The notes below the pieces were generated by a model, which worked only from the letters and a program-made list of their open reading frames with translations, did not search any database and was not told the origin of the DNA. Shown here one piece after another: positions 22,617-31,941 of a stretch of DNA of 64,000 nt; position 1 is the stretch's first letter; every line of letters starts with the position of its first letter. A program made the position numbers and the translations under genes. The stretch spans positions 2,020-66,019 of the forward strand of contig JAQTNF010000003.1 in assembly GCA_028713995.1 (NCBI GenBank), read 5' to 3'. This stretch comes from Deltaproteobacteria bacterium (GTDB lineage: Bacteria > Myxococcota_A > Polyangia > JAAYKL01).

Positions 22617-23318
22617 ATGGTCTTTTGCCAGACTCCTTTTTCCCAAATACCGTCAGACCGGCCTTCCGACCAGAACAGGTGGGACTCAGCGATCCCCGTC
22701 ACCACAGGTGACGGCAGCAGGGACAGATTAATGTTGTGGGGAGACAACCCCGGCCACTGTGACCTCTGTCCGGGATCAACCCTTCCTACCGCCCTTCGTA
22801 GGAAACTTGGACGCCGTGCCCAGCGAGCGTGCTCGGTCTTCCAAGACAGTCAGTCAGATCTCACAGTCGGCGGCTTCAAGCCGATGTGCGCTCTTATGGG
22901 GCTGTCGCAGGCCCAGAAAGGCAAGTTTGTCATGAGCTCCGAAAAATGTCTCAACCCCCCGTTCAGCACCCCCACCGAGTCGGCGAAACGAGCCCTTGTG
23001 GCCAGGGCGATCGCCCAGCTCAAAGAACTCCGAATCGATGACTCTCCTGAAGGCTCGGTCAAAGTCCTGCAGCAGGCTCTTGCGGCCGTTCTCGTCGTCT
23101 CCGACGGCACGTCACAGCCATCCTATTCGGTGCTCGTCGATTTCCTCGTGGGAGAGCGTGGCCCTTTGCGCGGTATCTGCCGGGCCGATCGTGTCCCAAT
23201 CACCGACGATATCGACGGCGTGATCGCCGAGGTGCACGGCCGGTACCGCGGGCTCGCACTCACCGAAACCGACGCCTGCCTTCTCGATCTCGCCGGTTGG
23301 GAAAGGGAGAAGCAATGA
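22617..23318 (+). CDS. Hypothetical protein; first gene of the island-II operon
   Basis: 233-aa ORF. High GC. Start uncertain. Confidence 0.4.
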   Translation: MVFCQTPFSQIPSDRPSDQNRWDSAIPVTTGDGSRDRLMLWGDNPGHCDLCPGSTLPTALRRKLGRRAQRACSVFQDSQSDLTVGGFKPMCALMGLSQAQKGKFVMSSEKCLNPPFSTPTESAKRALVARAIAQLKELRIDDSPEGSVKVLQQALAAVLVVSDGTSQPSYSVLVDFLVGERGPLRGICRADRVPITDDIDGVIAEVHGRYRGLALTETDACLLDLAGWEREKQ

Positions 23319-24820
23319 CCAACACCGAAAAGACTCCCTCGCACGGCTTCGGAACACAGCTCGTCATTATTGGGGCAGGAGCCGCCGTCATCATCGTGGT
23401 CGTGAAGATCCTCCTCTTCCTACGAAACCTCCTGTACTCGGCGCTTCATTTCATCGGCAGCGTCCTCTCTTTCCTGTGGACCGCCGCGCTGGCAACCGGC
23501 TCCGCAGTCGTCACGGCGCTCCTCGTCGCGCTGTTGGGCGATGCGCTCGCACCCATTTTCCGTGCAGGTCGCTGGCGAGGTGAGGTTCGTCGTTCGATTG
23601 CGAGCTGTGCACTGCCCACCATCAGGACGTTCCGCGGGTCTGACAGCACCAGCGAGGTCGACATGTGGCTCGCCCACGTGGTCCTGCGCGGAAAATACGT
23701 CGAGCTGTTTGGCGAAGAACCCGGCGCGAACGCTTTCGCACGGGGCGAGGCGGATTTTGCGGAATTCGTTGCGAACGAGCTCCCGCGTGCTTTGAGAGGG
23801 CCGTTCAAATTCACGGTCGAAAGCCAGATATTTACCCCGATATTCGAGACCTACCGCGCGGGGGACGAGCGCACCGTGAAGTGGGTCAATGACACTATAA
23901 TCTCGAAACGCGTTCGTCATCCTGTTCGCGCGCTCGGTCGCGTGATCGGGACCATCACTCTCAAGAGATTTGGGTTCGGCGCCAACGAAGGCTACCTGCC
24001 CGAGACGGTCGAACGGCGCTGCGCGGATCGTCGTTTCATTTTCGACCAAGTCCTGTGGCCGCATTTTTGGGCTAACGCGCGCCTGGTCGAGAGCTGGGTT
24101 CCCTTCGATCTCGCCGTAGAGCGCGAACCAGCGCCCCTTCCTGGAAGCTCGCGTGAAGAACAGGTCGTTGAGCGCGTGCCAGTGGACGAGCTGCGTTACC
24201 TCCTGCCGCCCCACATCGAGGACTACGAGCTGCAGGACAGGGAGCCCGAAGACGACCCGCCCGATTATGATCTCGACATCGACGACGACTCCCCGGACCT
24301 GGCCGCAATCCGCGCCGAGGCGGAATCCGCGGTGCAGGCGGTGATGGAGCGGTGCAACACCGACGGCCCATGGTGGGAGTCTGATCGCGCCGCCAAGACG
24401 CTCGCGGAATGCGATGCGGTGTTTCTCGCGGCTCTCCCATACTTCCACGACGCGCAGTTTATCTACGAACAACTGGCGCGGAACGAAATGCGAAAACACC
24501 GACTCGCAGGCTTTACCGTCACGTTCGAAGCCGCCATGCGAGAAGAGGGCGCTGAAGATCCGTTCATTTTGCCCTGGCTCGCCGCCGCAGTGATGGAACT
24601 CGATGGCGACATCAATCTCAAGCGTTTCCGCAGGCTCGCCCTGCGCAACTATCTGAATCACCTCGAACCACCGAGCTCCGCGGTCGCGCCCGTGCCCTCG
24701 GCTACGCCTGAATCACCACCACCGCCTCCCGCAGCTCCCGCGACCGTGCATGCGGGCGACGAACAACCCAAACCGGAAACCGCCAGGCCGAGGCTTAGGC
24801 GTGTGCCGAGCTGTTTTTAA
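23297..24820 (+). CDS. Membrane protein of unknown function
   Basis: 507 aa. 2-3 N-terminal TM helices. Acidic, Pro-rich tail. Overlaps the previous gene. Confidence 0.5.
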   Translation: MGKGEAMTNTEKTPSHGFGTQLVIIGAGAAVIIVVVKILLFLRNLLYSALHFIGSVLSFLWTAALATGSAVVTALLVALLGDALAPIFRAGRWRGEVRRSIASCALPTIRTFRGSDSTSEVDMWLAHVVLRGKYVELFGEEPGANAFARGEADFAEFVANELPRALRGPFKFTVESQIFTPIFETYRAGDERTVKWVNDTIISKRVRHPVRALGRVIGTITLKRFGFGANEGYLPETVERRCADRRFIFDQVLWPHFWANARLVESWVPFDLAVEREPAPLPGSSREEQVVERVPVDELRYLLPPHIEDYELQDREPEDDPPDYDLDIDDDSPDLAAIRAEAESAVQAVMERCNTDGPWWESDRAAKTLAECDAVFLAALPYFHDAQFIYEQLARNEMRKHRLAGFTVTFEAAMREEGAEDPFILPWLAAAVMELDGDINLKRFRRLALRNYLNHLEPPSSAVAPVPSATPESPPPPPAAPATVHAGDEQPKPETARPRLRRVPSCF

Positions 24821-24832
24821 GGAGGTACTTCG

Positions 24833-30651: not shown

Positions 30652-31779
30652 ATGGAGGATTCCATGAGCGTGAGACGAGAGAAACGCAAGACCAAGGCCG
30701 GAACGCGAGAGGTATGGGTCGTGGACGTAGTCACCGCACAGCCTGACGGCAGCGAGCTTCGCGTGAAGAAGCAGTCGGCCCGCTGGACGAGGCAGGATGC
30801 GCTGTCCTACGAGCGCACGCTTCTCCGCTCGATCAGTTCCGGGGAGTACTCGAAGAGAAAGGAGGTAGAGGCGGTACCGACAGTGGCAGAGTTCGCCGAC
30901 GAGTTCATCAAGGGGTACGCGAAGGTCTACAACAAGCCGTCCGAGGTGATTGCGAAGCAGGGCAACCTGGCACGCTACATCCTGCCGGACCTCGCGGGGC
31001 GCAAGCTGAGCGACGTCAAGGTGCGCGACGTGGAGAAGCTCAAGGGTCGCCTGCTGGCGAAGGGGCTCAAGCCCAAGAGCGTCAACAACGCGCTCGGCAC
31101 GCTGGGGAAGCTCCTGCGCTACGCCGAGGAGATCGAGGTCATCGGGAGCGTGCCGCGCGTCCGCAAGCTGAAGGCTCCGCCGCCCGAGTTCGACTTCCTC
31201 ACGTTCGACGAGGCCGAGCGGTTGCTGAAGGCGGCTTCGTACAACCCCGAGTGGCACGCGATGATCTTCTTCGCGTTGCGCACCGGGGTCCGGTACGGGG
31301 AGCTTTCGGAGCTGCGGTGGCGGGACGTCGACCTGAGCGCCGGGCGCGTGCTGATCCGCCGGAGTTACTGCGTTGGCCAAGTGACGACGCCGAAGGGCGG
31401 ACGTCAGCGGGAGATCCCGTTGTCGCCGCGGACGGTGGAGTTGCTCAAGAAGCGGCGGCAGCTGCGCCACCTCCAGGGAGACGGATTGGTGTTCTGCAAG
31501 GAGGACGGCGGCAGGCACATCCACAGGCGTGCGGACGTAGCCCTCAAAAGGTGTTGCCGGTTCGCGGGGCTGAGGGAAATCGGCTGGCACAAGCTCCGGC
31601 ACACTTTCGCGTCTCACCTCGCGATGCGCGGCGTTTCGCTCAAGAGCGTCCAGGAGCTGCTTGGGCACGCGACGATGGAGATGACGATGCGGTACGCGCA
31701 CCTGTCTCCGGAGGTGAACAACACGGCGGTGGCGTTGCTCGACGGGGAGCGCGTCGGCGAAAAAGTTACGGCGACATAG
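30652..31779 (+). CDS. int: Phage-type tyrosine integrase
   Basis: HKLRHTFASHLAMRGVSLKSVQELLGHATMEMTMRYAHL. Adjacent to the tRNA genes. Confidence 0.85.
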   Translation: MEDSMSVRREKRKTKAGTREVWVVDVVTAQPDGSELRVKKQSARWTRQDALSYERTLLRSISSGEYSKRKEVEAVPTVAEFADEFIKGYAKVYNKPSEVIAKQGNLARYILPDLAGRKLSDVKVRDVEKLKGRLLAKGLKPKSVNNALGTLGKLLRYAEEIEVIGSVPRVRKLKAPPPEFDFLTFDEAERLLKAASYNPEWHAMIFFALRTGVRYGELSELRWRDVDLSAGRVLIRRSYCVGQVTTPKGGRQREIPLSPRTVELLKKRRQLRHLQGDGLVFCKEDGGRHIHRRADVALKRCCRFAGLREIGWHKLRHTFASHLAMRGVSLKSVQELLGHATMEMTMRYAHLSPEVNNTAVALLDGERVGEKVTAT

Positions 31780-31864
31780 CGGCGACTTCGTGAATTGAAA
31801 TGTTTTTCGGGAAGAAAAAAAGCTCTAAGTACACAAAAGCCCTCGGGAAACTCCCGAGGGCTTT

Positions 31865-31941
31865 TGGCGGGGTGGACGGGACTTGAACCCGCGGCCTCCG
31901 GCGTGACAGGCCGGCGTTATAACCAACTTAACTACCACCCC
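31865..31941 (-). tRNA. tRNA-Asp (anticodon GTC), CCA encoded
   Basis: Reverse complement GGGGTGGTAGTTAAGTTGG...GCCGGCCTGTCACGCCGG...GGGTTCAAGTCCCGTCCACCCCGCCA folds as a cloverleaf. Confidence 0.85.

Follow-up and report, generated by a model that had tools for sequence, protein, structure and literature searches.

The 64-kb stretch of contig JAQTNF010000003.1 analysed here (the window; all coordinates are positions within it) carries, against the 3' end of a tRNA-Asp gene, a compact run of genes for two membrane proteins, a coupling-type ATPase, a predicted relaxase, an excisionase and a tyrosine integrase, which we discuss as a probable integrative and mobilizable element (IME). Five forward-strand open reading frames (ORFs) at 22617–23318, 23297–24820, 24833–26077, 26117–28540 and 28543–29463 overlap or lie 2–39 nt apart, and a recheck of the ORFs bore out both the coordinates and the tight packing given in a preliminary description of this DNA. 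That description took all five as one operon; the close spacing holds, but the cassette that is conserved in relatives has four genes, the first ORF being unconserved. It had also reported no recognisable domains in the first three ORFs (22617–26077), and we likewise found no match for them in Pfam, NCBIfam or PHROGs, nor in Pfam at E ≤ 10.

The tRNA-proximal region is compositionally foreign. G+C runs at 44–64% from position 1 to ~32000 and at 64–74% beyond; the element region has 57–64% G+C and a third-codon-position G+C content (GC3) of 0.68–0.88 (0.68–0.82 in the cassette and 0.88 in the integrase gene), compared with 0.90–0.93 for the ParA, ParB, PPDK, SMC and PilT genes on the right. The earlier label of a "high-GC" element is misleading, since both values lie below those of the chromosome to the right. 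No VirB4 or other mating-pore gene was found among the scanned large ORFs of the window.

Coupling-type ATPase and predicted relaxase

The fourth ORF (26117–28540, +) encodes an 807-residue P-loop ATPase that resembles the type IV coupling proteins (T4CPs) TrwB and DotL, with a Walker A motif (GRSGSGKT) at residue 59 and a Walker B motif (LIIDEWH) at residue 338, both kept across the family. At the sequence level its Pfam scores are marginal (TrwB_AAD_bind, 21.2 bits where the cut-off is 20.5, though no single stretch passes it; DEAD, 25.8 bits), the protein also matches TraD and VirD4-CD1115 weakly, and the NCBIfam T4CP models score far under their cut-offs. Relatives of the ATPase reach 22–31 bits with T4SS-DNA_transf and 31 bits with TraG-D_C, a phmmer search matched DotL (6sz9) at 1e-6, and a profile hidden Markov model (HMM) of the ATPase family matched the T4CP of plasmid pTEF1 (4e-12) and the MobB ORF of CloDF13 (1e-6). 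An AlphaFold2 (AF2) model of moderate confidence (predicted local distance difference test score, pLDDT, 55–87 for residues ~55–400) was compared with known structures using Foldseek, which ranked DotL/IcmO (6sz9_A, 9.5e-11) and TrwB (~1e-9, TM-score 0.57 over ~390–400 columns) ahead of VirB4 (2e-7), HerA (4e-7) and Cagβ. As modelled, the cytoplasmic fold is closest to that of T4CPs, and the earlier assignment as a VirD4/TraG-like coupling ATPase, for which the sequence signal is marginal, is secured by this fold search.

Two features set the protein apart. No hydrophobic segment is present anywhere in its 807 residues, and the N-terminal transmembrane (TM) domain of T4CPs is consequently missing; in studied T4CPs this domain is essential, as MobB, TrwB and PcfC mutants devoid of it are inactive (PMC7431656). 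Further, an insert of ~280 residues rich in Ser, Gly, Thr and Glu (residues ~430–710; 27404–28246, +) separates the NTPase core from a conserved C-terminal segment. In the family alignment this insert can be followed column by column in all members, including those of the related contigs L010 and L013 (29–34% identity; relatives are designated by L numbers throughout), and it is missing from the distant T4CP-like proteins P0003 and P0005. It matches the NCBIfam model NF033849, "serine-rich protein", at 70.6 bits over profile positions 260–556 of 1163, which hints at a similar domain in an unrelated annotated family; its AF2 pLDDT is below 35.

The fifth ORF (28543–29463, +) encodes a 306-residue protein that matches Replic_Relax (PF13814) at 68.5 bits against a cut-off of 25.3, with relatives at 58–68 bits, so that its previous placement in the replication-relaxation family stands. 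Relaxases carrying the PF13814 domain are those named MOB_C by CONJscan (PMC5357655, Table 1), a class whose prototypes are TraX of pAD1 and MobC of CloDF13, whose members are related to PD-(D/E)XK restriction endonucleases, and in which TraX has an N-terminal winged helix-turn-helix (wHTH) (PMC12857230). The pAD1-type plasmid pTEF1, typed "MOBC" by MOB-suite, encodes a "replication-relaxation family protein" that is likewise a PF13814 protein (28.5 bits), and its gene lies just 3' of the T4CP gene, an order identical to that in the window. The preliminary description, which saw no relaxase of any known MOB type, was accordingly incorrect on this point.

Seven members of the relaxase family share the invariant residues R162-P163-D164, E185-x-D187-R188 and E199-K200, which at motif level provide the acidic active-site signature expected of a PD-(D/E)XK-type enzyme; in an alignment by eye, the TraX-like FVAD...(17)...FEIELTMK motif shows the same spacing. 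The predicted fold is an N-terminal wHTH followed by a PD-(D/E)xK-like nuclease core. Direct similarity to the prototypes is slight: the relaxase-family HMM scored only 12.3 bits against the TraX-like protein of pTEF1, aligning the N-terminal wHTH region and an LxHxLxxND motif, and it matched no ORF of CloDF13, in whose record the mobC region is fragmented. A tblastn search of 72,556 PLSDB plasmids with the relaxase returned zero matches, and Foldseek with the low-confidence relaxase model gave nothing at E < 0.03, with trends only towards MarR/AspA wHTH proteins and XisH/PaqCI. Membership of PF13814/MOB_C is thus predicted from the profile match and the motif, not from fold or activity.

Conserved cassette and membrane proteins

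Relatives of this arrangement are rare. In k-mer-limited searches of 5.8 billion clusters we obtained five matches to the ATPase and six to the relaxase, and 1 of 185,579 species genomes, an uncultured Myxococcales metagenome-assembled genome (MAG), had a match. Where relatives occur, gene order is retained: a w414-like membrane protein gene, the ATPase gene and a Replic_Relax gene follow one another in L003/L004, L006, L010, L011 (a short contig that ends within the ATPase gene), L013, L017–L019, L022 and L023. This triad is present in at least nine independent elements, in most of which a w507-like gene stands 5' of it, and the two membrane proteins remain associated with the ATPase and relaxase down to 21–25% identity, with overlapping genes. 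From the sequence comparisons, the conserved core appears to be a four-gene cassette of a ~500-residue membrane protein, a ~414-residue membrane/coiled-coil protein, an ATPase lacking a TM domain and a MOB_C-like relaxase, found in hosts whose G+C extends from 38–41% (L017–L019) to ~68–70% (L013 and the window).

The surroundings of the cassette are variable. A tyrosine integrase and an excisionase (Xis) lie to its right in the window, L001, L006 and L017 and to its left in L013, large serine recombinases accompany it in L005 and L019, and the DNA to its left differs in each relative. In L013, L006 and L023, neither VirB4 nor mating-pair-formation genes were found closer than 10 kb to the cassette. 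The last of these (positions 1–13851) has the triad within an extended run of co-directional genes, among which are DUF5131 and a PIN_12 protein after an HTH_17 gene. No integrase was found within its 13.9-kb contig, so that L023 could represent a plasmid or a replicon of phage-like type.

The first membrane protein of the cassette, w507 (23315–24820, +), measures 501 residues from an ATG start or 507 from a TTG at 23297. It is predicted to have two or three N-terminal TM helices and a large conserved domain without an assigned family, in which the family alignment shows conserved motifs. A k-mer-limited homologue search returned w507 alone; homologues were recognised in the matching cassette slot of L006 (43% identity), L003 (30%) and L018/L019 (25%), with weak counterparts in L013 and L010. 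In the low-GC element L019 (5978–7388) the w507-like gene is split into two overlapping ORFs, identically in three samples, which reflects either a frameshift or a sequencing error.

The second, w414 (24833–26077, +), is predicted to have three TM helices at its N terminus and one at its C terminus, separated by a long helical or coiled-coil stretch. An exhaustive HMMER search delineated a family of 96 representative clusters, all of ~360–470 residues, and a Pfam run on 60 members assigned none of them to a Pfam family. Its gene always lies immediately 5' of the ATPase gene, often overlapping it (L003, L006, L010, L011, L013, L017–19, L022 and L023); a 364-residue neighbour in L005 was rejected as a homologue, as it shows 20% identity and lacks the TM pattern. 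Because T4CPs need a membrane domain and this ATPase has none, we infer that w414, with its 3+1 TM helices, anchors the ATPase in trans; it is presumably the membrane anchor or adaptor of the coupling ATPase, and w507 perhaps also holds the ATPase at the inner membrane.

Integration site, proposed mechanism and alternatives

Downstream of the cassette, the integrase gene (30664–31779, +, from a Logan gene call) encodes a 371-residue tyrosine integrase that matches Phage_integrase at 121 bits (over the ORF 30538–31779), and which is 78% identical to the integrase that L001 has at the same tRNA site and 57% identical to the L006 integrase. It is preceded by a gene for a 102-residue excisionase-type HTH_17 protein (30275–30583, +, Logan gene call; 37.2 bits), 72% identical to the Xis of L001 and similar to Xis proteins in L006 and L017. 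The preliminary description had the excisionase overlapping the integrase: both genes are present, but the overlap is an artefact of taking the longest ORFs, as an independent gene call on an identical contig places 80 nt between them and the homologues match only the Xis and Int parts. In the 375-codon ORF 29456–30583 HTH_17 (35 bits) is confined to residues 318–365, and we rejected this ORF as a gene, regarding it as an over-extension in G+C-rich DNA of which gene call and homologues cover parts only. The element has its own integration/excision module, an integrase and an HTH_17 Xis, beside tRNA-Asp.

The tRNA-Asp(GTC) gene itself (31865–31941, −), the presumed integration target, was confirmed with ARAGORN and Rfam, as were the earlier statements that it lies beside the integrase gene and that its 3' end points into the element; tRNA-Val(TAC) (31975–32047, −; ARAGORN, Rfam) belongs to the chromosomal context. 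Between the integrase stop codon and the 3' end of tRNA-Asp, a G+C-rich hairpin read from the sequence (31839–31861; GCCCTCGGG-aaact-CCCGAGGGC) with A and T runs on its flanks is conserved in L001 and looks like a bidirectional terminator.

The same chromosomal site is occupied in a second genome. In L001, an integrase (78% identical), an excisionase (72%) and a relaxase (50%) stand beside tRNA-Asp, tRNA-Val, NifU, ParA and ParB, and the DNA is 77% identical to the window from xis through the tRNAs, with a host flank of 46–55% G+C compared with 66–73% for the window flank. The L001 ATPase gene has lost its P-loop half (keeping residues 258–807 of the window protein), and w507 and w414 are replaced by other cargo, making this island an example of in-place decay and cargo turnover. 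Within positions 1–9920 of L001 the cargo comprises an AAA_15 ATPase with a Metallophos protein and an rve/Mu-like transposase with an AAA_22 partner.

Further elements of the module lie between the relaxase and xis genes. An ORF for a 60-residue Cys-rich, zinc-ribbon-like protein (CxCxxC...CxxC; 29637–29819, +, Logan assembly gene call), which was absent from the preliminary description, is conserved, resembling the C-terminal part of an ORF 3' of the relaxase gene in L006 (tblastx, 2e-6) and weakly matching Zn_ribbon_LapB. The region from there to xis (29820–30274) contains no conserved ORF and is a candidate regulatory or transfer-origin (oriT) region; as single-stranded DNA, positions 30100–30280 fold with z = −5.1. 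A sequence search located a perfect 12-bp inverted repeat with a 5-nt loop at 30197–30225, ~50 nt upstream of xis. In L001 a repeat of the same geometry, its arm changes compensated, occupies the same position, and the corresponding position of L006 holds a 15-bp inverted repeat. L017 has one of 12 nt with a 34-nt spacer (by eye); no corresponding repeat was found in L013. This repeat could be an operator, a terminator or part of oriT.

We interpret ~22577–31864, together with an attachment (att) core in tRNA-Asp, as the tRNA-proximal module of a genomic island and as a helper-dependent IME, a reading that we hold to be the probable one, if with no great confidence. It is a mobilizable element that is proposed, rather than a conjugative one, because a relaxase and a coupling-type ATPase are encoded but no mating pore; an IME is recognised by a relaxase and/or oriT without a complete mating pore, and the window presents a relaxase and no pore genes, pore genes having been sought among its large ORFs. 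In this scheme, the tyrosine integrase and the HTH_17 excisionase would integrate and excise the element at the 3' part of tRNA-Asp, and after excision the PF13814 relaxase, of MOB_C type and restriction-endonuclease-like, would bind and nick oriT, which probably lies in the non-coding stretch beside the relaxase gene. The TrwB/DotL-like ATPase, held at the inner membrane by the co-transcribed w414 and perhaps by w507, would then deliver the DNA to a type IV mating pore supplied by a conjugative element resident in the same cell. The core of the earlier proposal of an IME at tRNA-Asp is hence supported by the integrase, the excisionase, the coupling-type ATPase, the relaxase, the lack of pore genes, the foreign DNA and the L001 site, while its left end is unproven.

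We looked for the left attachment site (attL) with exact and mismatch patterns, word-7 blastn and tiled Smith–Waterman alignments against shuffled controls, procedures that att cores under ~10 bp escape. The preliminary description had pointed to 22490–22620 as the place for a direct repeat of the tRNA-Asp 3' end; no such repeat is found there or elsewhere in the window. The spacer between int and the tRNA has no repeat above shuffled background in 1–31700 or in the extra 1.9 kb available to the left, and the search for an att repeat was also empty in L001 (10 kb) and in L013. A Logan contig (L007; run SRR22315509) corresponds exactly to 22577–31914 and ends inside tRNA-Asp; its extent is suggestive, and we downgraded it as proof of the boundaries, as its overlap with the neighbouring contig is only 12 nt in an assembly that is fragmented over this region.

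Several points weigh against a helper-dependent IME. IMEs usually lack two extra conserved membrane proteins, and no helper type IV secretion system (T4SS) is known for this MAG. The tRNA-Asp 3' part is unrepeated across the window and the 1.9 kb further left; as no attL was found, the left end and present-day mobility are unproven. Foreign composition continues to the window start, and the unit may exceed the proposed size; the contig break at 22577, with its overlap of only 12 nt, may reflect low coverage and not a true junction. The truncated cassette of L001 shows that such elements decay in place. The non-coding gaps have no oriT-like direct-repeat array above chance, of the kind bound by TraX, similarity of the relaxase family to CloDF13 MobC is undetectable and that to the TraX-like protein of pTEF1 amounts to only 12 bits, and the AF2 model of the relaxase (mean pLDDT 51) is unusable. 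Finally, the ATPase lacks the TM domain that is essential in the T4CPs studied so far (PMC7431656).

[quoted passage not shown] Besides the missing att repeat, it draws on the left neighbourhood, where other foreign DNA forms a mosaic and two more recombinases are encoded, and on the L001 relative at the same site, from which w507, w414 and the P-loop half of the ATPase have gone. In the window, however, the cassette genes, xis and int are all full-length and intact, with translationally coupled spacing; ~22 kb of the 86-kb source contig fall outside the window and could contain attL, and short att cores (below ~10 bp) are beyond the reach of the searches. The preliminary description had named, as the signature of a fixed remnant, a missing att repeat together with the same genes at this position in all related genomes: no repeat was found, but the content of L001 differs, and such a difference in gene content at the tRNA-Asp site argues against simple vertical inheritance of a fixed segment.

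A larger ICE or composite island, whose excising unit runs left past the window and whose pore genes lie outside the 64 kb, would account for the failure to find a left boundary and for the foreign composition that reaches leftwards from 31864 as far as position 1 and for no less than 1.9 kb beyond, and other recombinase types do flank the cassette in relatives. We nevertheless judge it improbable, given that the large ORFs in the 32 kb left of the tRNA include no VirB4, VirB6, pilin or other T4SS gene, that the patchy G+C there (44–62%) suggests several unrelated acquisitions, that the DNA left of the cassette is different in each relative, and that L013, a 758-kb contig, is free of pore genes within 10 kb on either side of the cassette.

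Slightly less credible again is a self-sufficient transfer module operating without VirB4, in which w507 and w414 would form an inner-membrane conduit, the ATPase would be the motor and the PF13814 nuclease would process the DNA. The persistence of both membrane proteins with the ATPase and relaxase to 21–25% identity, in overlapping genes, exceeds what a typical IME carries, and the ATPase has a large, conserved, family-specific insert; if the idea were true, the Ser-rich domain would have a dedicated role, for example in channel gating, partner docking or substrate handling, and the module would spread autonomously in Myxococcota-like bacteria without a classical type IV pore. Neither VirB4 nor a peptidoglycan hydrolase, outer-membrane or pilus component is present, however, and the hosts appear to be diderms. 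To our knowledge, all characterised single-stranded-DNA conjugation systems have a VirB4-type ATPase, which counts against such a module.

That the cassette is instead non-transfer cargo, its membrane proteins, HerA/FtsK-superfamily ATPase and PD-(D/E)xK nuclease forming a defence or DNA-handling system, we regard as very improbable: HerA-type ATPases paired with nucleases do occur in defence systems, HerA-Sir2 and DUF4297-HerA are among the weaker structural matches of the ATPase, and its T4CP signals are marginal at the sequence level, but its best structural matches are T4CPs and not HerA, the nuclease belongs to the relaxase family PF13814, the neighbourhood searches gave no PADLOC-type signal (the cassette proteins themselves were not scanned against PADLOC), and the cassette is consistently linked to integrases and excisionases, not to other defence genes.

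Taken as a helper-dependent IME, the window element has several counterparts among known systems. CloDF13 belongs to the rare MOB_C1 (MOBC1) group of mobilizable plasmids that encode their own T4CP and a MOB_C relaxase (PMC7431656). Like the window element, it is a pore-less mobilizable replicon with its own coupling ATPase (MobB) and a non-HUH relaxase of MOB_C class (MobC) (PMC7431656, PMC12857230), and its MobB ORF is weakly recognised by the HMM of the window ATPase family. In contrast to the integrated element described here, CloDF13 is a plasmid; MobB has its own essential three-helix TM domain, whereas the window ATPase lacks one and follows separately encoded membrane proteins. CloDF13 has no Ser-rich insert, and none of its ORFs showed detectable sequence similarity to the window relaxase family.

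Another counterpart is the streptococcal IME_Class_8, which is likewise compact, integrated and devoid of a pore, with a coupling protein, a PF13814 relaxase and a recombination module in succession (PMC5357655). In that class the hosts are Firmicutes, the integrase is of the serine type and VirD4 is canonical, whereas the window combines a tyrosine integrase and a tRNA-linked Xis with a divergent T4CP that has an insert and no TM domain, two extra conserved membrane proteins and a Myxococcota-like host. The pAD1/pTEF1 plasmids offer the experimentally studied MOB_C prototype, TraX, and in pTEF1 the PF13814 homologue is found just 3' of the T4CP; the N-terminal wHTH and the LxHxLxxND motif align, and the D...ExE spacing resembles D164...E185xD187 of the window protein. 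pTEF1 is, however, a conjugative plasmid with a full Gram-positive T4SS, the relaxase similarity amounts to 12 bits with nothing in tblastn, and its T4CP carries TraG-D_C and DUF87 signatures and no Ser-rich insert. With tRNA-targeting tyrosine-integrase islands the element shares an integrase gene abutting the tRNA 3' end, an upstream Xis and a related module at the same tRNA elsewhere; unlike in those islands, the expected far-end direct repeat of the tRNA 3' part was not found in the window.

IMEs that combine a MOB_C relaxase with a T4CP of their own are a kind of element already known. What is new is a T4CP subfamily in which the TM domain is lacking and a Ser-rich insert is conserved, a pair of orphan membrane protein families, the targeting of tRNA-Asp by a tyrosine integrase, and occurrence in uncultured Myxococcota-like bacteria. 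Mobilizable elements that encode their own coupling protein and a MOB_C relaxase are rare and little studied, and the mechanism of MOB_C relaxases is obscure because no covalent intermediate has been observed. The cassette represents an undescribed lineage in which the T4CP has shed its membrane domain, carries a large conserved Ser-rich insert and is invariably paired with the w414 family, in mostly uncultured hosts of 38–70% G+C, and it supplies a concrete, testable case of a "split" T4CP. It also offers a way to approach gene flow among myxobacteria-like lineages, whose conjugative elements are little known, and for annotation, a "replication-relaxation family protein" beside a "hypothetical" P-loop protein marks a mobilization module.

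Flanking DNA

At the presumed left edge of the element, the first ORF (22617–23318, +; 233 codons, no family) is either doubtful or element-specific. It has no counterpart in L001, L003, L006 or L005, and its N-terminal part looks non-protein-like; yet an independent assembly calls it as a gene. On the opposite side, a NifU-like gene, ParA and ParB follow directly past both tRNAs (32120–34177), in an order identical to that of L001; the long ORF 32519–34177 is a fusion artefact that spans ParA, in another frame, and ParB.

To the left, positions 1–22576 and the 1.9 kb further left (L008) are foreign, with 44–62% G+C and GC3 of 0.42–0.81, and most of the large ORFs there have no family. The region is patchy, as if several acquisitions had accumulated at the tRNA locus. 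Immediately before the first ORF, two tandem XerC/D-like tyrosine recombinases of 329 and 299 residues are encoded at 20347–21336 and 21585–22484 (both +; Phage_integrase, 123 and 115 bits), which score 167–194 bits against the XerC/XerD models, under the cut-offs, and have three small or medium-sized ORFs without family 5' of them. The pair does not stand beside the cassette in any relative, and its membership of the element is therefore not shown. A bounded, transposon-like unit was rejected for these genes, as no bounding inverted repeats were found, and so was a recombinase trio, as there are only two recombinases and the 292-residue ORF has no recombinase domain.

Further left, two tandem copies of a 54-nt unit (85% identical) at 17442–17549 lie within a stretch of 44–46% G+C and overlap a 551-codon ORF without family on the reverse strand. 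A defence-island reading of the left region was not adopted, PADLOC having given only a weak protease match. One protein of this region, among the ORFs at 7298–9463 and 5238–6380, has both an N-terminal prepilin-type methylation motif and a FecR domain, and upstream of it a trypsin-like serine protease gives a weak PADLOC signal for LmuA/RT-protease. Between these features, 12861–14852 (−) encodes a Cys-rich protein of 663 residues with EGF-like or teneurin-like EGF matches, and its DNA contains internal repeats with a period of 78/81 nt in seven copies.

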